Of a stretch of 52,197 bases of DNA, positions 1 to 52,197 are shown piece after piece. The position numbers were made by a program, and so were the translations under genes. Origin of the DNA: a virus (Duplodnaviria; Caudoviricetes). Position 1 is the first letter of the stretch. Each line of letters starts with the position of its first letter. Where the stretch lies: the IMG/VR virus record IMGVR_UViG_3300032322_000313, positions 1 through 52,197 of that record, one strand, 5' to 3'. The notes below the pieces were generated by a model. The model did no database searches, was not told where the DNA came from, and worked only from the letters and a program-made list of their open reading frames with translations.

Positions 1-1
1 A

Positions 2-529
2 GCGTGGGTTGATTCCATCCTTGATCGTCGCTTCATTCGCTCACGTTGGGGCGCACGCTCCGTAGAGATTAAACTAACAAACGGCTACGGCGGTGCGAAC
101 GCTTGGGGCAGTTACAAGATCACAGCCTCACGCGGTGCCCGTAACGAGTACGCGATGCTTCACGAAATCGCGCACACGCTAACGCCACGCGATGTTGGGC
201 ACGGACCCGAGTTCGCCGGGGTCCTGCTCTTCCTCGTACGCAACGTACTCGGGGCTGATGCACACAAAGCCCTGCTTACGGCTATGCGTGAACACGGCGT
301 TAAACGCAGTAATGCTGGCATCCCCAAGGTTAGGCCAGGCGATGCTGTCCCCAAGCCTGTCAAGGTGCGGGAACGTGAGGCAAAGAAGCGCGAACAGGAA
401 GAGGCGCGATTCAACATCATCCGTGAGGTTAATCGCGGCAACATTACTTGGAATCAAGTAATCGCTCTTGCGAAAGAAAAGCAGCGTCAAGCCGCCGAGT
501 TCAAGGCTGCATCACGCAGAGCCAAATAA
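2..529 (+). CDS. HEXXH metallohydrolase, TIGR04338/Rv0185-like (3' part; starts at 52157 across the circular junction)
   Basis: LHEIAH followed by HGPEF. Frame is open from base 2 and joins in frame to MRSKRDSQRSKVYA at 52157-52197, resembling the RDSQRxKVYAA N-terminus of this family. Confidence 0.75.
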   Translation, partial: AWVDSILDRRFIRSRWGARSVEIKLTNGYGGANAWGSYKITASRGARNEYAMLHEIAHTLTPRDVGHGPEFAGVLLFLVRNVLGADAHKALLTAMREHGVKRSNAGIPKVRPGDAVPKPVKVREREAKKREQEEARFNIIREVNRGNITWNQVIALAKEKQRQAAEFKAASRRAK

Positions 530-589
530 CCGAAACCCCGTGAGGGGTCCACCGGGATTCGCCACCCGGTGCTGATGAGGTAGGCGTAA
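529..589 (+). ncRNA. Type II hammerhead ribozyme HH1
   Basis: acc-GAAA-cccc(gtga)gggg-TC-caccggg(attcgcca)cccggtg-CTGATGA-ggt. Tail ggcg (583-586) pairs with loop cgcc (560-563). Predicted cleavage after C549. Confidence 0.95.
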
Positions 590-603
590 CGAAAGGGAAA
601 CCA

Positions 604-921
604 ATGCAGACAATCACGCTGCCGTCCTTCAAGAACATCACAAAGACCTACTGCGGATTGGGGGGATGCGCTTGCGGTTGCGGCGGCACCTACGTCGCTC
701 CCACGCACGCTGATGTTGATTCATACACGCCCCGCAATAACCGCACAGTCAAGATGCGGCTTACCAAGGTCATCAAGGCTTACGAGGCAAACCCTTCAAG
801 CGTTAGCGTGTTCCCCGGCTTCGGTAACGAGATGATCTGGGAGTACGTGTACGGGACGTACAGCGATCACAACGCGCTCGGACGGGTTGTCCGTATTTAC
901 GCCACGAAGGAGGAGGCGTGA
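604..921 (+). CDS. hypothetical early protein with GCACGCGG Cys motif
   Basis: ORF with CGAAAGGG RBS directly after HH1. Confidence 0.75.
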   Translation: MQTITLPSFKNITKTYCGLGGCACGCGGTYVAPTHADVDSYTPRNNRTVKMRLTKVIKAYEANPSSVSVFPGFGNEMIWEYVYGTYSDHNALGRVVRIYATKEEA

Positions 922-1223
922 ACACAATCAAGCGTCGCCGACCCGGACTCTACGACAGCGGGAACTACACGCTCGCAATCGGAAGCGACTGGCGGCACGA
1001 CGGATCACATCGACCATTCGTTATCGAAATCATTCGCAGGGTCTACACACCCGGCGCTGGCGCACCCAAGGGTGACGGCACTCATTACGACGCACTCACC
1101 TACAAGCGTTACCGCGCGGTTGTTCCTACGCTGCGTTTCGCAACCGCATTCCGCATCGGCGGTATCGCCATGATCACCTACCGCTGGCAGCAGCGGCTAC
1201 TCAACAAACTGGCAACAACATAA
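918..1223 (+). CDS. hypothetical protein
   Basis: GTG start, strong AGGAGG RBS, overlaps upstream stop. Confidence 0.65.
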   Translation: MNTIKRRRPGLYDSGNYTLAIGSDWRHDGSHRPFVIEIIRRVYTPGAGAPKGDGTHYDALTYKRYRAVVPTLRFATAFRIGGIAMITYRWQQRLLNKLATT

Positions 1224-1238
1224 CGAAAGGTAATCGTA

Positions 1239-1430
1239 ATGAACTACCTAGAGCAGCAGATCACACAGCAGCAAGCGCACCTTATGACTCTGGCTCAAAC
1301 CGCCCAAGCGTTGCACGGTGACCGTCCCGAGTTGTACGCGGCAATCATGGACGCTGATCGCGCCTTGGATAAAGCGTTCGCACTTGCCTGCGATACGGAT
1401 TACGCAACAGCCGTTGCGCTCACAGAATAG
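1239..1430 (+). CDS. hypothetical protein
   Basis: CGAAAGG RBS at 1224. Its stop codon overlaps HH2 stem II. Confidence 0.7.
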   Translation: MNYLEQQITQQQAHLMTLAQTAQALHGDRPELYAAIMDADRALDKAFALACDTDYATAVALTE

Positions 1431-1493
1431 TCGAAACCCCGCTACGGCGGGGTCGCGCAGAAATTACCTACTGCGCCTGACGAGACAGGTGAA
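1430..1493 (+). ncRNA. Type II hammerhead ribozyme HH2
   Basis: gtc-GAAA-ccccgc(tacg)gcgggg-TC-gcgcag(aaattaccta)ctgcgc-CTGACGA-gac. Tail aggt pairs with loop acct. Cleavage after C1454. Confidence 0.95.
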
Positions 1494-1507
1494 CGAAAGG
1501 GAAGCAC

Positions 1508-1756
1508 ATGGATATCAAAGAGATCGTAAAGCAGAGCGAAACATTTGTTGATAACTACCCACTGTCCTCGGACAACATGGGTGGGCGCTCCTATCGGGTA
1601 ATGCTGCACGCGGTAATGACAATGGCTCGCGAGTCAGGTGCCATTCGGACCGACGAGGATCACGACATCCTTCTCAGCCTGCTTGTGAAATCGGATATGG
1701 ATGCACAGCGCATCGGTTGGGAAACAGCCTTGAAGAATAACGAGGTTGCATCGTGA
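1508..1756 (+). CDS. hypothetical protein
   Basis: ORF with CGAAAGGGAAG RBS after HH2. Confidence 0.75.
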   Translation: MDIKEIVKQSETFVDNYPLSSDNMGGRSYRVMLHAVMTMARESGAIRTDEDHDILLSLLVKSDMDAQRIGWETALKNNEVAS

Positions 1757-1857
1757 AACTCACACGACGCGGCGAATACGCCATCGCAATCCTCGCAACA
1801 ACAATCATGCTCGCGGTCATGGGGATCGCGGGATGGATCGAAGGGGGTATGCAGTAA
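1753..1857 (+). CDS. small membrane peptide (MKLTRRGEYAIAILATTIMLAVMGIAGWIEGGMQ)
   Basis: Read manually. GTGA and TAATG overlaps with neighbours, basic N-terminus plus one hydrophobic helix. Confidence 0.65.
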   Translation: MKLTRRGEYAIAILATTIMLAVMGIAGWIEGGMQ

Positions 1858-2123
1858 TGAGTACCGCAACAGATACACAGCGCAAGACACTCACGGTCGG
1901 TGAGTTGATTAACGAGTTGTCGAAACTGGATCCGAACAAGCCGATCCTGTTCAGCGCAGCGTCAGCCGATTACTGGCAAACCCGGCTGGCGTACCGATTC
2001 ATCAACAACAACGTTCACGAAATGAACATCAAGTGGGACGAATACCACGGGGAATACTCAGTCCACGATCCTGAGGAGGACGACGATTATGACTACGACG
2101 GAACCGTCTACGTCTTTTGTTAA
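1857..2123 (+). CDS. hypothetical protein (MSTATDTQ..., LTVGELINELSKLDP)
   Basis: Translationally coupled ATG, acidic C-terminus. Confidence 0.7.
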   Translation: MSTATDTQRKTLTVGELINELSKLDPNKPILFSAASADYWQTRLAYRFINNNVHEMNIKWDEYHGEYSVHDPEEDDDYDYDGTVYVFC

Positions 2124-2234
2124 TAACGAGCCGATCAACGTGGCAACCGAAGAGGGGCGACGCCGCCTCGCAGAACTCGCGGCTAACGGACCAATCTTCA
2201 AGGTCCGCCATGCTTGCGATCAACGTACTGACTA

Positions 2235-2292
2235 GATCGAAACCCCGCGAGGGGTCCGGTACTGAATGGTGCCGCTGATGAGATCGTCAGTC
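2235..2292 (+). ncRNA. Type II hammerhead ribozyme HH3
   Basis: gatc-GAAA-cccc(gcga)gggg-TC-cggtac(tgaatg)gtgccg-CTGATGA-gatc. Tail tcag can pair with ctga at the stem I apex. Cleavage after C2256. Confidence 0.92.
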
Positions 2293-2311
2293 ACACGAAG
2301 GGGTAACGCTA

Positions 2312-3313
2312 ATGGCACACGAAATCGAAATCATGGAGGACGGCACCGCAGCGTTCTTCAGCAATCGCGAGGTTCCCTGGCACAACCTTGGCGTACTCAC
2401 CGATTCCGCGCAGACTGTGGACGATGCGCTGCGGCTCGCCATGTTGGACTGGACCGTTTACAAGAGTGAGGAACCAGTCACCACAACCGTTATCACCGAG
2501 AACGGTGTGGCTAACGTCCCGGTGCCCGACCGATTCGCCACCTACCGCGACCATCCCATCCTCGGTTTGCAGGGACTTGGCGTGGTCGGCAATCAGTACA
2601 CAGTCATCCAGAACCGTGAGGCGTTCGACTTCCTCAATCTGCTCGCTGATGAGTCCGGTGCTGTGTTCGAAACCGCTGGATCTCTGCGCGGTGGCACTCG
2701 CGTGTTCATGTCCATGAAGATGCCGCAGCACATCAGCATCGCCGATGGTACGGACACGGTAGACCTGTACCTTATTTGCACCACCAGCCACGACGGGACT
2801 CAAGCCTTCACGGTCTATCTGTCGGCGGTTCGCCCGGTTTGCGCCAACACGGTCCAGTTCGGACTTAATGGTGCCGCCCACAAGTGGCATATGAAGCACA
2901 CAAGCAGCATCAAGGGCAAGATCCAGCAGGCACGGGACACGCTCGGATTCGTTGTCGATTACGCCGATGCGTTCCAGCAGGCAGTCGATCAACTTGTTTC
3001 GCTGGAAATGACACGTTACGAGTTCCAGGGATTTACGGAGTCACTTCTTCCTACGAACAAGGATATGTCTACGCTTCAGATCTCACGCACCGAAGAGGCA
3101 CGCAGCGAAATCTTCGGACTCTGGAATGCGCCGACACAGCAGAACGTGGCTAATACGCGGTGGGCAGCGTTCAATGCCGTCACAGAGTGGGCTGATTGGT
3201 TTAAGCCTGTCAAGGCTGGTAAGCGTGACGAGGATCTTGTTCGCGCAGAGCGCGTGTTCAGCGGGGGCGTGGAGGGCATCAAGCAGAAGGCTTACGCACT
3301 CCTTTCCCGGTAA
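2312..3313 (+). CDS. DUF932 / TIGR03299 phage-plasmid family protein
   Basis: Motifs PWHNLG, VGNQYTVIQNREAF, FETAGSL, SHDG, RPVCANT, TRWAAFNAVTE. Confidence 0.9.
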   Translation: MAHEIEIMEDGTAAFFSNREVPWHNLGVLTDSAQTVDDALRLAMLDWTVYKSEEPVTTTVITENGVANVPVPDRFATYRDHPILGLQGLGVVGNQYTVIQNREAFDFLNLLADESGAVFETAGSLRGGTRVFMSMKMPQHISIADGTDTVDLYLICTTSHDGTQAFTVYLSAVRPVCANTVQFGLNGAAHKWHMKHTSSIKGKIQQARDTLGFVVDYADAFQQAVDQLVSLEMTRYEFQGFTESLLPTNKDMSTLQISRTEEARSEIFGLWNAPTQQNVANTRWAAFNAVTEWADWFKPVKAGKRDEDLVRAERVFSGGVEGIKQKAYALLSR

Positions 3314-3326
3314 CCGCCACCCAACG

Positions 3327-3367
3327 TGGGGCGGGAGGATATTCCTTCCCTTTCTCCTCCCGCCTCG
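3327..3367 (+). promoter_or_regulatory. 13-bp hairpin with pyrimidine loop complementary to the early-gene RBS
   Basis: tggggcgggagga / tcctcccgcctcg stem with loop tattccttccctttc. No U-tract follows. Confidence 0.6.
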
Positions 3368-3409
3368 CCTTGGCTTGCGGTTGCAGCCAATCATAGAAGG
3401 GTTATTCGC

Positions 3410-3814
3410 ATGGATTTCAAGCGCACATCTGAGGATTCATGGTCGTGCAGCGACGACCGCTATGGCATTCGTTTGGAGCGTGACCCGTGGATCCGCCCGG
3501 AGGGTTCCAATCCGCCCGTCTACGTCGTTTACATCGGCAAGTACGGGCCGTTCAGCCAGTCACCGCTGGCAACACTTACGGCGTTCGGTGCTGCCGTGGA
3601 TTACATCAAGCAGGATGCAGCCCTGCCCGTGTTTAACGAGGCTGGCGACTGCCGCTGGTGCGGGTTGTCGCAACTTGATTTGGCTAGTGCGCCGCGCTGG
3701 TGGTTTGGGTGCAACTTGTGCGAAACGGAAATGGAGCGCACAGCAGACAATCAGGACGAAATCGAACGCAGCATCGCGCAGCACGAACAGGAGTTCGAAC
3801 CGCTGCACGACTGA
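3410..3814 (+). CDS. hypothetical protein with CxxC...CxxC
   Basis: AGAAGGG RBS before MDFKRT, Cys pairs CRWC and CNLC. Confidence 0.65.
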   Translation: MDFKRTSEDSWSCSDDRYGIRLERDPWIRPEGSNPPVYVVYIGKYGPFSQSPLATLTAFGAAVDYIKQDAALPVFNEAGDCRWCGLSQLDLASAPRWWFGCNLCETEMERTADNQDEIERSIAQHEQEFEPLHD

Positions 3815-3879
3815 GCGGTGTGTCACACCATTCAAGGCAGCCTCAGAATGTAGGATGCCGTAACGAAAGAGGGGTTCGC

Positions 3880-4308
3880 ATGGCACGCAACATTGTTATT
3901 GACCTAGGACTGGTTTGCCCGTCCTGCCGCGAGTACGACGTATGCGGTGATGACTGCATCTGCCCGTCGTGCTGGTATCCAACACGATTCGATCCGAAAC
4001 AGCGCGACGATGCTGTTAATGCGTGGCGTTTCTTCGCCCCGGTAACCGCAGCGATGAACGAGGAGAATATCAACTGGGGATGGGCTACCGAAGAGAAGTA
4101 CCAGAACCGACTTGAGTTCAGCCTAGAGATCATAACAAAGGACGAGCGCTGGTACGAGGTCGTCAAGCACGACGGTAAGTATCTCGTTACGCATTGGCGC
4201 ATGAAGCCCGGATCGCGTGAGCGTGACGAGCCACCAGAGCCGATCCTTCTGGATGAGGTCATCGCTGATACACCGGACGAGGTTGTTAATCGCCTCGCTG
4301 ACCGTTAG
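3880..4308 (+). CDS. hypothetical zinc-ribbon protein
   Basis: CGAAAGAGGGG RBS, CPSC...CPSC. Confidence 0.65.
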   Translation: MARNIVIDLGLVCPSCREYDVCGDDCICPSCWYPTRFDPKQRDDAVNAWRFFAPVTAAMNEENINWGWATEEKYQNRLEFSLEIITKDERWYEVVKHDGKYLVTHWRMKPGSRERDEPPEPILLDEVIADTPDEVVNRLADR

Positions 4309-50310: not shown

Positions 50311-51030
50311 TTATCTCCTTGCTGCCGAAACGTGGTAGGTGATGGAGCCGGACGATCCGGCGAGGGAATGCGTCGCACGGAGATACTGATTCACCGTGCC
50401 CGTGCTGGTGATGCTTTCCCCAACCGTCGTGCTTGCACTAACGGCGGAGAACGTGACGAGATCAACCCACGTTGCGTTATCAGCGGAGTGCTGAACCTTA
50501 ACCGTGGATGCGCCGTCACGAGTATTGGCAGTAACGTGCAGGTTGAATAGTCCACCGTTACTGGTTGCGGAGCCATCGTTGATCCCGGTGAGGGATGCCG
50601 ACGTTCCGGTGTTTGTCAGAGGGTTAAGGGCGCGGCCCGAGTAAAGGCCACCATCAGCCTGCACCTCGGCGCTAATGGCAACAACGTCACCGACAGGGGA
50701 GGAAACCTCGTACGAGGTCAACTGTCCGTTAGCGATAATGCTGCGTGCGCCAGCGGTGGCACCCTCAGGAAGCACCGTGAAAGTGTTATCCTCCTGGCCG
50801 ATAGCCCCGGTCAGCACATCATTCGATGCGTTAGCGGTGCCGTCGAAGAGGCCGCTCGTTGAGATCGTGCCATCACCCAGACCCGTAATGTATGTCTTGT
50901 CGTCATCCGCGAACGTTGTCGTCTCTGCGGTTTCGATTTCCTGCGTCTGTGTGGCCTCGTTAAGGAACGGGGACATATCGGTGCCGTTCATGAGAACGAC
51001 CGTGCGCTTACCGTGACGGAATGTGGGCAT
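50311..51030 (-). CDS. tail tube paralog with C-terminal extension
   Basis: MPTFRHGK...ETAETTTF..DKTYITGL...YEVSSPVGDVV plus ~100 aa (VKVQHSADNATWVDL). Confidence 0.8.
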   Translation of the reverse strand: MPTFRHGKRTVVLMNGTDMSPFLNEATQTQEIETAETTTFADDDKTYITGLGDGTISTSGLFDGTANASNDVLTGAIGQEDNTFTVLPEGATAGARSIIANGQLTSYEVSSPVGDVVAISAEVQADGGLYSGRALNPLTNTGTSASLTGINDGSATSNGGLFNLHVTANTRDGASTVKVQHSADNATWVDLVTFSAVSASTTVGESITSTGTVNQYLRATHSLAGSSGSITYHVSAARR

Positions 51031-51239
51031 CACTTGCCTCCCTTGCCAGGAGACTTAGGCTCACGCGCAGCAGTTGTCTGTGGCGTTACCGCATCGGCGG
51101 TAGCGTTATCGGTGGGTTCGATGATGTTCTGCGCAAGAAGCCACGACACGCTCTTGCTTGGAAGATCGTTAACGATTGCGCCAGCCTCGGCACGCTTCCC
51201 CTCGTATTCGATACCGACGAGGATCTTGTATGAAGCCAT
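51030..51239 (-). CDS. small hypothetical virion-module protein
   Basis: AAGGAG RBS, first ORF of the minus-strand operon. Confidence 0.65.
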   Translation of the reverse strand: MASYKILVGIEYEGKRAEAGAIVNDLPSKSVSWLLAQNIIEPTDNATADAVTPQTTAAREPKSPGKGGK

Positions 51240-51557
51240 TCCGCTCCTTGGACGCGCGGCAACCCCGGCATCCCTGGGGCCACGCGAGCCACGGCGAGAG
51301 CGGGGTCACGGGTGGACACGTTGCTGAGATCATCATACCGGATAGACAGACTCTCAGGCGGTGGGATTTCCGCTGGTATTTCCCTATGGGGTTCGCCCTA
51401 AAGCTCGTTCTACGTCTGTCTATCTGCCGTCATCTTGGATCGTGGTGGTCGGCGCGGTCGGCATCTCAGCCATAGATTAACGCTTTGTAACAACTCGATA
51501 ACACAACGCCGAAATGCAGCCTCAGGATGCGGGTCGCTGTAGATTCATCTACATAAC

Positions 51558-51775
51558 TTCACAGCGGATCGGGGCACCGCCCCGGGCGAAGGCGGGGGAC
51601 GATCCCCCCGCGCGCGACCCGGCAAGCCTGTGAACCAGCCCGATCCGAACCGCTTTGGGCCACCCGGAAGGGACCTACCGCGAGACTAACCAGCCGACGG
51701 CGATCACCGCATTCTGCGCCAGAACCGTTGGAGGGGACAATGCGCGGCAAGACGAGCCGCAGTAACCCAAGGTGC
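51558..51775 (+). ncRNA. candidate structured ncRNA / early-operon leader
   Basis: No convincing ORF. Multiple complementary segments, including crossing helices ttcacag/ctgtgaa and cggatcggg/cccgatccg. Confidence 0.5.
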
Positions 51776-51788
51776 AACAAACTTCCCA

Positions 51789-51866
51789 GTCGAAACCCTG
51801 CCGTTATTTAACGTGTAACGGTAGGGTCCGCAGGAATCGCCGTCCTGCGCTGATGAGACAGGCGTA
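51789..51866 (+). ncRNA. Type II hammerhead ribozyme HH4
   Basis: gtc-GAAA-ccctgccgtta(9 nt)taacggtaggg-TC-cgcagga(atcgccg)tcctgcg-CTGATGA-gac. Tail ggcg pairs with loop cgcc. Cleavage after C51828. Confidence 0.95.
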
Positions 51867-51883
51867 CGAAAGGGGAGCCAATC

Positions 51884-52078
51884 ATGAAGTACCGAGTGAC
51901 ATTTACTGCCGAAGGTTGGAAGCGGAACATTCAGCGCGACATTCTGTGCAGCGATCCTCGCACAGCGCGCGACACCGTTACTGGCCTTAATCCTGGCTGC
52001 ATCATCGTGAGCGTCCGCAAGATCAAGGAGCGCGGCATTCCTCGTGAGCATCTTGCCGAGGCTGCCGCCAACTGGTAA
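51884..52078 (+). CDS. hypothetical early protein
   Basis: CGAAAGGGGAG RBS, flanked by HH4 and HH5. Confidence 0.7.
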   Translation: MKYRVTFTAEGWKRNIQRDILCSDPRTARDTVTGLNPGCIIVSVRKIKERGIPREHLAEAAANW

Positions 52079-52081
52079 CGA

Positions 52082-52142
52082 GTCGAAACCCCGCGATGGG
52101 GTCGCACGGACATAGCCGCCCGTGCCTGATGAGACAGGCTAA
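52082..52142 (+). ncRNA. Type II hammerhead ribozyme HH5
   Basis: gtc-GAAA-cccc(gcgat)gggg-TC-gcacgg(acatagccgc)ccgtgc-CTGATGA-gac. Tail ggcta pairs with loop tagcc. Cleavage after C52103. Confidence 0.95.
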
Positions 52143-52156
52143 CGAAAGGGAAGAAC

Positions 52157-52197
52157 ATGCGATCAAAGCGAGACAGCCAACGCAGCAAGGTGTACGC
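52157..52197 (+). CDS. 5' end of the TIGR04338-like metallohydrolase (continues at base 1)
   Basis: MRSKRDSQRSKVYA with CGAAAGGGAAG RBS. Confidence 0.75.
   Translation, partial: MRSKRDSQRSKVY

Follow-up and report, generated by a model that had tools for sequence, protein, structure and literature searches.

What does a self-cleaving ribozyme do between the stop codon of one phage gene and the start codon of the next, and why does its predicted cut lie at an almost constant distance from that start codon? The question arises in the window, the whole stretch of 52,197 nucleotides of viral DNA analysed here, where five type II hammerhead ribozymes lie within 2.7 kb between early genes of the phage. 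The arrangement of the sequence suggests that these ribozymes probably cut the early polycistronic plus-strand RNA at gene borders, and that the cut-to-start distance of 53-55 nt is a by-product of packing.

Anatomy and identity of the ribozymes

All five ribozymes lie on the plus strand. HHa and HHb are the elements that the original prediction called HH4 and HH5.

51788-51866, + strand: HHa, ribozyme of the early-operon leader; cleavage after C51828; Rfam RF02276, 36.2 bits, E 0.0009
51829-51866, + strand: parts of HHa; stem I hairpin 51829-51849, core 51850-51856, tail including the pseudoknot strand 51857-51866
52081-52142, + strand: HHb; cleavage after C52103; Rfam 35.9 bits; covariation
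52104-52142, + strand: parts of HHb; stem I 52104-52125, core 52126-52132, tail 52133-52142
528-589, + strand: HH1; cleavage after C549; Rfam 44.1 bits, above the gathering score; covariation
550-589, + strand: parts of HH1; stem I 550-571, core 572-578, tail 579-589
1429-1493, + strand: HH2; cleavage after C1454; Rfam 37.4 bits; covariation
1455-1493, + strand: parts of HH2; stem I 1455-1476, core CUGACGA 1477-1483, tail 1484-1493
2234-2295, + strand: HH3; cleavage after C2256; full core and stems by the core-and-stem scan; covariation
2257-2295, + strand: parts of HH3; stem I hairpin 2257-2274, short at 18 nt; core 2275-2281; tail 2282-2295, long at 14 nt

The catalytic core is intact in all five elements, with CUGAUGA or CUGACGA, CGAAAC and GUC in the correct order, and the Rfam alignments show a three-way junction in which loops cap both stem I and stem III and stem II is open. 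Stem III of HHa is long, with 29 nt from CGAAAC to GUC. Two of the five elements score above the 37-bit gathering score of Rfam Hammerhead_II (44.1 and 37.4 bits) and two slightly below it (36.2 and 35.9 bits), with Rfam spans of 528-589, 1429-1494, 51788-51867 and 52081-52143. HH3 is missing from the Hammerhead_II matches even at E<=10. No other hammerhead was found in the window by Rfam at E<=10 or, on both strands, by the core-and-stem scan, which itself overlooked HHa.

Covariation was analysed in 23 cassettes, four from the window and 19 from four related viral contigs. The helices are paired in 94.7% of the cells vs. 69.8% in shuffles, a level reached by none of 500 shuffles, and slid controls are paired in 33-44%. 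Changes on both sides of a pair were observed in 14 of the 19 pairs. By helix, stem II is paired in 98.6% (both-sides changes in 2 of 3 pairs), stem III in 100% (3 of 5), stem I in 91.3% (7 of 7) and the pseudoknot between loop I and the tail in 90.4% (2 of 4). This pseudoknot has 4-5 bp in each of the five ribozymes (CGCC/GGCG, UAGCC/GGCUA, CGCC/GGCG, ACCU/AGGU and ACUGA/UCAGU); in HH3, UCAGU of the tail pairs with ACUGA of loop I. Among 149 hammerheads of the matches listed, a pseudoknot of at least 5 bp forms in 32% with cognate tails vs. 6% with non-cognate tails.

The ribozymes have counterparts in five related viral contigs (G001-G005), with four to eight Rfam matches each in G001, G002, G003 and G005 and two in G004, and the core-and-stem scan gives three to seven hammerheads per contig. 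The order of stop codon, ribozyme, Shine-Dalgarno (SD) and ATG is constant in all of them. HH3 orthologues precede the DUF932 gene in G001, G003 and G004. That the five elements are chance matches or decayed, inactive relics is hardly credible: although three of them do not reach the Rfam gathering score, all cores are intact, all four helices covary, the elements are kept in the five related contigs, and the motif CGAAACCCC..GGGGTC occurs four times vs. 0.00 expected by chance.

Searches of GenBank phages returned no DNA match to positions 1-4000 or 51300-52197. An 87-nt cassette query against the same phages gave only short hairpin-like matches at E<=10, and the best of them, in Enterobacter phage Arya, was rejected because the gap that holds it, at 58 nt, cannot accommodate a hammerhead. 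A related-locus search with the DUF932 protein yielded zero loci. The DUF932 homologues in cultured actinophages have at most 41% identity, and hammerheads are absent at E<=0.1 from the DUF932 loci of Mufasa8, LuckyBarnes and Warren. Thus, the ribozyme is not tied to DUF932 in general. A search of genome contigs returned two MAG contigs only, which gave no host call; an actinobacterial host is only hinted at. Sequencing runs labelled RNA-Seq were flagged 'probably DNA'; their contigs cover the stretch only in pieces of relatives and show no pile-ups of begins or ends, and contigs of this kind carry no signal on RNA ends.

On the upstream side, the stop codon shares one base with stem II at HH1 (TAA 527-529, A529), at HH2 (TAG 1428-1430, G1430) and, provided that ORF 2089-2235 is real, at HH3 (TAG 2233-2235, G2235), and at HHb it lies 3 nt 5' of stem II (TAA 52076-52078), exactly as had been predicted. 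HHa has no conserved upstream gene. A mini-ORF in its leader (51740-51811), which reads into HHa, was treated as chance because its ATG is missing in G001 and G005. The stop-to-start unit of ~77 nt acts as a cassette, and its ribozymes are real, in agreement with the modular cassette of the original prediction.

The distance from cut to start

The tails were also predicted to run straight into CGAA(A)GGG. They do so in all five cases, as CGAAAGGG, CGAAAGGGG or CGAAGGGG; the ATG comes after a further 6-8 nt.

51867-51886, + strand: SD CGAAAGGGG, 8-nt spacer and ATG 51884 of a 64-aa ORF (51884-52078), 3' of HHa
52143-52197, + strand: SD CGAAAGGG, 6-nt spacer and ATG 52157, 3' of HHb; this ORF extends past the window end and shares its frame with ORF 2-529
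590-606, + strand: SD CGAAAGGG, 6-nt spacer and ATG 604 of a 105-aa ORF (604-921), 3' of HH1
1494-1510, + strand: SD CGAAAGGG, 6-nt spacer and ATG 1508 of an 82-aa ORF (1508-1756), 3' of HH2
2296-3313, + strand: SD CGAAGGGG, 8-nt spacer and ATG 2312 of the DUF932 / TIGR03299 gene (2312-3313), 3' of HH3

The product of ORF 2-529 matches the TIGR04338 HEXXH metallohydrolase with an E of 6e-10, under the family cut-off. The 604-921 ORF has a homologue in G001 that is likewise preceded by a hammerhead.

A recount of the cut-to-ATG distances returned the predicted numbers, with 54 nt for HH1 (C549 to ATG604), 53 nt for HH2 (C1454 to ATG1508), 55 nt for HH3 (C2256 to ATG2312), 55 nt for HHa (C51828 to ATG51884) and 53 nt for HHb (C52103 to ATG52157). 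The distance comprises the stem I hairpin (18-22 nt), the core (7 nt), the tail (10-14 nt), the SD (8-9 nt) and the spacer (6-8 nt), and the cleavage site is 38-40 nt 5' of CGAA(A)GGG in all five. In HH3 the stem I is shorter and the tail is longer, and the sum is the common total; similarly, G001_1868 has a short tail and a longer spacer, yet the same total as the others. The SD itself is not confined to the ribozyme cassettes, a point on which the original prediction is not supported: it also serves at least six other plus-strand genes. CGAAAGG occurs 11 times on the plus strand and once on the minus strand of the window, and it stands 5' of the ribozyme-free genes at 1239, 4512, 6462, 7397, 8248 and 10308. 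CGAAAGGG is the general early-gene SD of the phage and is not ribozyme-specific.

For a wider comparison, hammerheads were fetched from IMG/VR by a pattern blind to their flanks, and all figures hold among the matches listed. Starts and stops were called with ORFs of at least 40 codons and a 4-nt match to the anti-SD complement; these rules err sometimes, with 11 of 134 hammerheads left without a call and a few values under 40 probably wrong. The median cut-to-start distance is 54 nt (IQR 49-59) in 108 distinct viral hammerheads among the matches listed, each distinct stem I being counted once. Of these 108, 89 have a stop codon that ends 1-7 nt before CGAAAC and 62 one that ends 1-3 nt before it, and no upstream frame enters the core in the hammerheads among the matches listed. 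The stop codon of a frame of at least 40 codons lies 1-7 nt before CGAAAC at 66 of 76 IMG/VR matches listed vs. 29 of 760 pseudo-sites, and an SD-preceded start lies 45-62 nt 3' of the cut at 56 of the 76 vs. 87 of the 760.

The distance was predicted to be fixed, and this holds in all five ribozymes of the window. However, the distance is an additive sum: stem I length and the remainder show no compensation (r=-0.08, p=0.41, n=116 hammerheads among the matches listed). The comparison with homologous phages gave a similarly divided result, in which 22 of 24 cassettes of the lineage have 52-57 nt, whereas the 10th-90th percentile range of the family is 43-66 nt among the IMG/VR matches listed. 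Most likely, the 53-55 nt are not separately tuned and are the additive result of tight packing against the standard early SD.

The leader ribozyme is preceded by a further element.

51782-51787, + strand: CUUCCC, anti-Shine-Dalgarno-like hexamer, 1 nt 5' of HHa stem II

In the uncleaved RNA, CUUCCC is predicted to pair with GGGGAG at 51872-51877 (MFE -44.4, z -4.7). For G001 this helix is predicted as well, and the window, G001 and G005 share an identical 17 nt 5' of the leader ribozyme. In folds that leave out the pseudoknot, the predicted unpaired probability of the SD at HHa increases from 0.29 in the uncleaved RNA to 0.81 in the cleaved RNA. The predicted SD accessibility at HH2 increases from 0.48 to 0.82 on cleavage, and it is about equal in the cleaved and the uncleaved RNA at HH1 (0.72 and 0.72), HH3 (0.62 and 0.59) and HHb (0.64 and 0.59). 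There is no family-wide enrichment of helices that join the 5' flank to the SD (cognate mean 3.58 vs. non-cognate mean 3.68, 98 hammerheads among the matches listed). In these models, the anti-Shine-Dalgarno is peculiar to the leader copy, where CUUCCC is predicted to mask the SD until cleavage. HHa would thus be RiboJ-like in the strict sense. The likeness to RiboJ in the original prediction is retained in this predicted unmasking at HHa, but at the other four ribozymes the predicted change in accessibility is small or inconsistent.

It is conceivable, though we consider it rather doubtful, that the total distance and the leader were themselves selected, as the original prediction held, making the unit a natural insulator with a standardised 5' UTR, in which stem I and the pseudoknot keep a set distance to the start codon, and with downstream expression independent of the upstream context. 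The narrow ranges in the window and its lineage are consistent with such selection, as is the arrival of HH3 and G001_1868 at the totals of the others. Five independent draws from the family would span <=2 nt with P ~0.0009; however, the five are paralogous cassettes rather than independent draws, and their likeness may be inherited. Unrelated genes are preceded by stop-to-start units with 99-100% identity over their whole length in three of 19 contigs that hold several hammerheads. The predicted removal of the conserved anti-Shine-Dalgarno by the leader ribozyme would also fit, whereas the unenriched pairing of flank and SD in the family does not. The missing compensation and the broad family-wide range argue against selection of the total, G003 deviates with 49 and 44 nt, and ribozyme-free genes have the same SD and spacer. 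Given the trade-off in HH3 and the 2-nt range in the window, selection on total length may still have acted in this lineage.

Probable transcript cutting at gene borders

In the preferred reading, in which the ribozymes cut the early transcript at gene borders, the type II topology would place the cut between the hairpins of stems III and I, so that each message would receive a hairpin end. For the upstream message, the 3' end would lie ~20 nt past the stop codon, in a hairpin rich in GC that carries a 2',3'-cyclic phosphate. The downstream message would carry a 5'-hydroxyl and open with the hairpin of stem I, which the pseudoknot of tail and loop I would lock; the SD and the start codon would come directly after it. 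The standard leader of the original prediction follows from geometry, as type II ribozymes, by their topology, must leave stem I and the SD as the 5' leader of downstream messages. The hairpin energies are -7.5 to -20.4 kcal/mol for stem III and -8.0 to -12.2 kcal/mol for stem I, and of 117 family members among the matches listed, 76 have a GNRA or UNCG loop on stem III. The spacing would then be made up, with no spare nucleotides, of the 38-40 nt of ribozyme between the cut and CGAA, a constant length, then the SD of 8-9 nt and the spacer of 6-8 nt. Uncoupled cistrons and uniform leaders would be an insulator-like consequence, and at the leader ribozyme the cut would also strip the conserved anti-Shine-Dalgarno hexamer. 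Judged from the sequence, an insulator effect is plausible; from the same arrangement we infer self-cleavage in the cell, a protective role of the terminal hairpins and insulation. A scan for sigma-70-type sites only found no sigma-70-like promoter in 1-4000 or 51000-52197, and no terminator-like site was found between the genes of the ribozyme-bearing stretch.

Less probably, the ~77-nt cassette is chiefly a recombination linker through which early accessory genes are swapped while the ribozyme secures expression of the newcomer, a reading that we consider unlikely. In the stretch of small genes, DNA homology between the window and its relatives mostly consists of 75-90-nt cassettes reaching from stem II to the ATG, and most genes flanking the cassettes have no detectable similarity between the window and the relatives. 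The same ribozyme type is found at different positions, with unrelated genes downstream, in the window and in G001, and metagenome contigs of relatives diverge from the window at two cassette edges, 599 and 1431. Identical cassettes stand before unrelated genes in L026, L068 and L071, and among the products of the phage are a Rad52-like annealing protein as well as a PD-(D/E)XK exonuclease. However, with an element at every border, any replacement of an operon gene would show borders there, and the cassettes of the window lineage are just 64-80% alike, a poor substrate for homologous exchange. Moreover, a linker needs neither a conserved catalytic core nor a covarying pseudoknot. By extension, the stop-to-start unit could be a portable 'plug-and-play' linker that gives each inserted gene its own hairpin-capped message and marks a site of gene exchange between phages, with type II favoured as the sole topology that gives each product one protective hairpin; we regard this as a speculation with a small chance of being correct.

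Regulation of cleavage by upstream translation appears quite improbable. On this view, a ribosome terminating at a stop codon inside or adjacent to stem II would open up the ribozyme's 5' half, and the cut would report translation of the upstream ORF. The bases shared by stop codon and stem II at HH1, HH2 and HH3, the closeness of the stop codons to CGAAAC in the 108 hammerheads among the matches listed and the absence of upstream frames from the core are in line with such control. However, maximal packing alone yields the same geometry, and the stop codon has to precede the cut anyway.

Comparison with known systems

Cutting of the transcript at gene borders, the reading preferred here, calls for no new class of element; the kind has been known since the clustered prophage hammerheads of 2011. 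Cleavage of these elements, which flank single genes, was observed both in vitro and in E. coli, and processing of phage transcripts into single-gene mRNAs by clustered hammerheads has already been proposed (Perreault et al. 2011, PMC3088659). The prophage hammerheads of the Agrobacterium tumefaciens ardA locus, Azorhizobium caulinodans and Clostridium scindens belong to the same class, with a pseudoknot between loop I and the 3' tail, and as here, several copies surround single phage genes or short blocks, one example adjoining an anti-restriction gene, which is an early accessory gene (PMC3088659). In comparison with those clusters, the array here holds five copies in 2.7 kb, and relatives have up to eight Rfam matches. 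The main text of that paper mentions neither stop codons nor ribosome-binding sites (PMC3088659), and the packing is quantified here. Three type II hammerheads of Desulfovibrio vulgaris, near phage-derived genes, cleave in vivo, where 2',3'-cyclic phosphate and 5'-OH ends were captured; they are single chromosomal loci and not an array as here (Olzog et al. 2021, PMC8782182). HHa, the leader ribozyme, has its analogue in HHphage of the haloviruses HF1/HF2, which lies in the early region on a polycistronic transcript, 13 nt 5' of the start of the first gene, with a mapped 5' end <=3 nt from the cleavage site (PMC3088659). HHphage differs in belonging to an archaeal virus, in its variant, salt-dependent core and in its single copy (PMC3088659).

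The role of bacterial and phage hammerheads is still called an open question in a review (PMC6765202). In a search of openly readable main texts, no paper turned up that deals with the spacing of stop codon, ribozyme and RBS or with RiboJ-like cassettes occurring naturally in phages. The window and its relatives offer a clean natural case, in which nearly every small gene of the early operon is bracketed by a ribozyme. The stop codon lies inside stem II and the SD follows right after the pseudoknot, a packing common to ~100 distinct viral hammerheads among the matches listed. The vague idea of polycistronic processing is thereby turned into specific predictions on message ends, decoupling of cistrons and SD unmasking at the leader copy.

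By geometry alone, all five ribozymes resemble RiboJ, as a self-cleaving hammerhead just 5' of the RBS whose cleavage would fix the 5' end of the message. RiboJ, reportedly described by Lou et al. in 2012, is said to be an engineered type III hammerhead of satellite RNA, placed as a synthetic insulator just 5' of the RBS. It reportedly strips off upstream RNA so that the leader stays constant, with nearly the whole ribozyme staying on the message and a 23-nt hairpin exposing the RBS. Unlike RiboJ, the type II hammerheads here would give one hairpin to each product, and they have no added hairpin, as the tail enters the SD within 2-4 nt of the pseudoknot strand. The cassettes may serve as compact natural parts for operon design. 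In phage T7, RNase III cuts the early polycistronic RNA between cistrons and leaves hairpin ends on the messages. T7 depends on this host enzyme, whereas here the RNA itself would cut, independent of host RNases.

Hammerheads between the early genes of the window

Five type II hammerheads, HHa, HHb and HH1 to HH3, lie on the + strand of the window. HH1 and HH2 score above the Rfam Hammerhead_II gathering score of 37 and HHa and HHb slightly below it. HH3 has a complete core and all three stems, with no Rfam report even at E<=10. The motif CGAAACCCC..GGGGTC occurs 4 times, compared with 0.00 occurrences expected by chance.

Type II hammerheads of the window. Each line gives the coordinates and strand, the Rfam Hammerhead_II score, the predicted cleavage C, the lengths of the stem I hairpin, core, tail to CGAA, CGAA(A)GGG(G) and spacer, and the number of nucleotides that separate the cleavage C from the ATG.
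HHa: 51788-51867, +; 36.2 bits; C 51828; 21, 7, 10, 9 and 8 nt; 55 nt
HHb: 52081-52143, +; 35.9 bits; C 52103; 22, 7, 10, 8 and 6 nt; 53 nt
HH1: 528-589, +; 44.1 bits; C 549; 22, 7, 11, 8 and 6 nt; 54 nt
HH2: 1429-1494, +; 37.4 bits; C 1454; 22, 7, 10, 8 and 6 nt; 53 nt
HH3: 2234-2295, +; no report; C 2256; 18, 7, 14, 8 and 8 nt; 55 nt

A recount of the distances between the cleavage sites and the ATGs gave numbers identical to the 53-55 nt of the original prediction. The overlap of stop codons with stem II noted there was also recovered, as TAA 527-529, TAG 1428-1430 and TAG 2233-2235 each share the last base with stem II, and the TAA at 52076-52078 stops 3 nt short of stem II of HHb, as stated. 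The 48-aa ORF (2089-2235) is doubtful because it lies mostly inside a stretch of ~110 nt (about 2124-2232), between the 88-aa gene and HH3, that is absent from the related viral contigs G001 and G004 and from one contig of the sequencing run X4. The HH3-type copies (window 2226-2238 and 2282-2291; IMG/VR contigs L142, L144 and L145) have a conserved UGACUAG ahead, with stops in two frames. The tail GUCAG(U) of this type can pair with either the loop I ACUGA or a CUGAC just upstream of the stop, and these two possible partners suggest an alternative, extended stem II. The HH3-type copy at 4231-4303 of L144 (the related contig G003) is without any pseudoknot tail; its Shine-Dalgarno directly follows stem II and the cut is 44 nt before the ATG.

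Pairing was assessed in stems II, III and I and in the pseudoknot between loop I and the tail, using an alignment of 4 window cassettes (the units from stop to start, comprising hammerhead and Shine-Dalgarno) with 19 more from four viral contigs related to the window. In these 23 cassettes, 94.7% of the cells are paired, compared with 69.8% in shuffles (0 of 500 as high) and 33-44% with the partners slid. Both-sided changes are found at 14 of the 19 pairs, stem I covaries at every pair, and the pseudoknot helix is paired in 90.4%. A cruder test of 149 hammerheads showed a helix of at least 5 bp in 32% of the cognate loop/tail pairs vs. 6% of the non-cognate ones. Thus, the pairing and covariation statistics show that the hammerhead structures are under selection.

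The window is an entire IMG/VR virus record of 52,197 bases (linear class, CheckV completeness estimate of 91%, G+C of 57%) and has long - strand ORFs at ~16.4-51.2 kb, one of 1611 aa, that we take to be structural genes. The + strand operon begins past a 550-nt non-coding stretch (51240-51790), exits the window end and resumes at position 1 to ~16.4 kb. The two record ends are probably adjacent, and the genome probably circular or permuted, since the ORF from ATG 52157 exits the window exactly in the frame of the open ORF 2-529. The product of the joined ORF (52157-52197 plus 2-529) matches the TIGR04338 HEXXH metallohydrolase from profile position 52 only (E 6e-10, under the family cut-off), reflecting either a short N-terminal part or sequence absent at the junction. 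According to rule-based gene calls, the + strand stretch opens with small proteins without a family match, followed by DUF932/TIGR03299 (homologues mostly from actinophages, identity <=41%), a Rad52-like annealing protein, a PD-(D/E)XK exonuclease and a pyrimidine-dimer glycosylase, as well as a replication initiator, RusA, a ParB-like protein and a TET-associated glycosyltransferase. The ribozymes bound blocks of overlapping or closely coupled genes at 604-1430 and 1508-2235. The divergent non-coding region that separates the two gene blocks on opposite strands holds a perfect 11-nt inverted repeat (51341-51351 and 51414-51424, arms 62 nt apart), which looks operator-like.

Packing and spacing of the hammerhead family

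An IMG/VR pattern scan, covering only CGAAAC..stem III..GUC..stem I..CUGAYGAG, returned at least 137 stretches that yielded at least 134 non-identical hammerheads. Among the matches listed, 76 hammerheads with at least 300 nt on each side were compared with pseudo-sites of the same loci. The end of an upstream stop (frame of at least 40 codons) lies 1-7 nt ahead of CGAAAC in 66 of the 76 hammerheads vs. 29 of 760 pseudo-sites, and a start lies 45-62 nt past the cut in 56 of 76 vs. 87 of 760. When each stem I is represented once, again among the matches listed, the stop fits in 89 of 108, with a distance of 1-3 nt in 62 of 108, and no upstream frame among the matches listed enters the hammerhead core. 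These stop and start statistics show that the type II hammerhead occupies the entire gap between two genes in many unrelated phages. In such phages the stop codon contains or adjoins the beginning of stem II, and a few nucleotides separate the pseudoknot strand from the Shine-Dalgarno. This packing, unlike the total spacing, is not trivial.

Three results say that the total from cleavage site to ATG is the sum of its parts and not a tuned length. A start (preceded by a Shine-Dalgarno, ORF of at least 40 codons) was callable in 123 of 134 hammerheads among the matches listed, with a median cut-to-start distance of 54 nt, an interquartile range of 49-58.5 nt and a 10th-90th percentile range of 43-66 nt; one representative per distinct stem I (108 among the matches listed) gave a median of 54 and an interquartile range of 49-59. 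There is no correlation between the length of stem I and the rest of the distance (r=-0.08, p=0.41, n=116 among the matches listed), and in the same sample their variances are additive (64.2 expected vs. 61.0 observed). Five independent draws from the family would span 2 nt or less with a P of about 0.0009, and the tight 2-nt range of the window is best explained by five paralogous copies with one architecture and one Shine-Dalgarno.

The third result is that CGAAAGGG is no part of the ribozyme, as the motif precedes ribozyme-free genes too. It is the Shine-Dalgarno of those at 1239, 4512, 6462, 7397, 8248 and 10308, and the form CGAAGGGG serves the ribozyme-free gene at 1857. The window holds 11 copies of CGAAAGG on the + strand and a single one on the - strand; none of the 30 - strand starts has a site of the CGAAAGGG type, and those starts carry AGGAG-type sites. 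The extended motif (A)CGAAAGGG(T/A)A is found before 10 of the 24 listed + strand starts (up to ~10.3 kb) and before 51884 and 52157, compared with 0 of 30 - strand starts; a translational regulator of the early messages might use it as a common site.

The predicted conservation of the spacing in homologous phages was borne out, with 52-57 nt in 22 of the 24 cassettes of four related contigs and the window. The distances are 54, 57, 57, 55, 54, 54 and 56 nt in G001, 55, 57, 53 and 52 nt in G004, 54, 57 and 55 nt in G005, and 49, 57, 55, 54 and 44 nt in G003, in which one value was set by hand from 49 to 54 using the ATG opening the DUF932 frame. The contig G002, nearly identical to G001, was omitted from this count.

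Cassettes in relatives and the leader copy

Rfam matches at E<=1 number 8 in G001, 8 in G002, 6 in G003, 4 in G005 and only 2 in G004, the HH3 type being missed by Rfam. A core-and-stem scan of the fetched stretches found 7 ribozymes in 2.8 kb of G001, 6 in G002, 5 in G003, 4 in G004 and 3 in G005, and G001 has a ribozyme on either side of most small early genes. DNA similarity between the window and its relatives in the ribozyme stretch is largely limited to the cassettes, the matches running from the 5' strand of stem II to the ATG. Homologues in these relatives exist for just the 105-aa gene, the 88-aa gene and DUF932, and contigs of relatives from other metagenomes diverge from the window at 599 and 1431. 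Comparison of at least 32 hammerhead pairs within 19 contigs showed cassettes 99-100% identical in 3 of 32 pairs (L026, L068 and L071), with unrelated genes downstream, and 91% identical in 2 more. The flanks of these near-identical pairs show 53-64% identity, equal to background similarity. The L026, L068 and L071 cassettes suggest that the whole cassette was recently duplicated or underwent gene conversion. In some phages, the stop-to-start unit thus appears to be duplicated or converted in one piece, which supports the term cassette; the unit might also serve as an exchange point.

No conserved gene precedes the leader copy HHa. A 23-codon ORF (51740-51811, Shine-Dalgarno GGAGGGG) reads into HHa and terminates within the loop of the long HHa stem III; this candidate was rejected, its ATG being missing in G001 and G005. 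One nucleotide ahead of HHa stem II is a CUUCCC (51782-51787). The window, G001 and G005 share all 17 nt directly ahead of the ribozyme, the whole leader being ~70% alike. In the predicted uncleaved fold (MFE -44.4 kcal/mol, z -4.7; pseudoknots not taken into account), CUUCCC pairs with the Shine-Dalgarno GGGGAG (51872-51877), a helix also predicted in G001. The predicted unpaired probability of this Shine-Dalgarno rises from 0.29 to 0.81 after removal of the upstream part, so that cleavage of HHa would unmask the ribosome-binding site. Pairing of flank and Shine-Dalgarno shows no excess in 98 sampled hammerheads, and the predicted accessibility is unaltered by cleavage at HH1, HH3 and HHb. 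Thus, such unmasking is predicted not to be general among hammerheads.

Proposed processing of the early transcript

The window hammerheads belong to a known kind, the clustered phage hammerheads. In 2011, clustered hammerheads were described flanking single prophage genes and cleaving in vitro and in E. coli, and processing into single-gene mRNAs was already put forward (PMC3088659); 'stop codon' and 'ribosome binding' are absent from the accessible portion of the text of this first description. Type II copies were reported to cleave in vivo in 2021 (PMC8782182), and a 2019 review describes the purpose of hammerheads as still undefined (PMC6765202). Outside subscription papers and PDF supplements, we found no published description of the quantified stop/ribozyme/Shine-Dalgarno packing, of arrays as dense as those of the relatives (up to seven ribozymes within 2.8 kb), of cassette-level duplication or of the anti-Shine-Dalgarno at HHa.

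The early transcript would be produced as a single RNA, and scans of limited reach found neither a sigma-70-like promoter in 1-4000 or 51000-52197 nor a terminator-like site between the genes of the ribozyme-bearing stretch. Every ribozyme would fold during synthesis and then cut itself. Owing to the type II topology, stem III would be retained by the upstream product (-7.5 to -20.4 kcal/mol; loops GNRA or UNCG in 76 of 117 sampled family members) at the extreme 3' end of that product, ~20 nt beyond the stop codon, and therefore termination should stay normal. The downstream product would have a 5'-hydroxyl end with stem I (-8.0 to -12.2 kcal/mol) and the pseudoknot, immediately followed by the Shine-Dalgarno. 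Ends of these two kinds slow exonucleases and 5'-end-dependent RNases in bacterial mRNA decay in general, and presumably do so in the present phage. As messages separated by a cut cannot be translationally coupled, each block would be initiated on its own. Such cutting would act in the manner of the RNase III sites that separate the early genes of T7 and of synthetic ribozyme insulators; the hammerheads of the window differ from both in being a self-contained RNA part.
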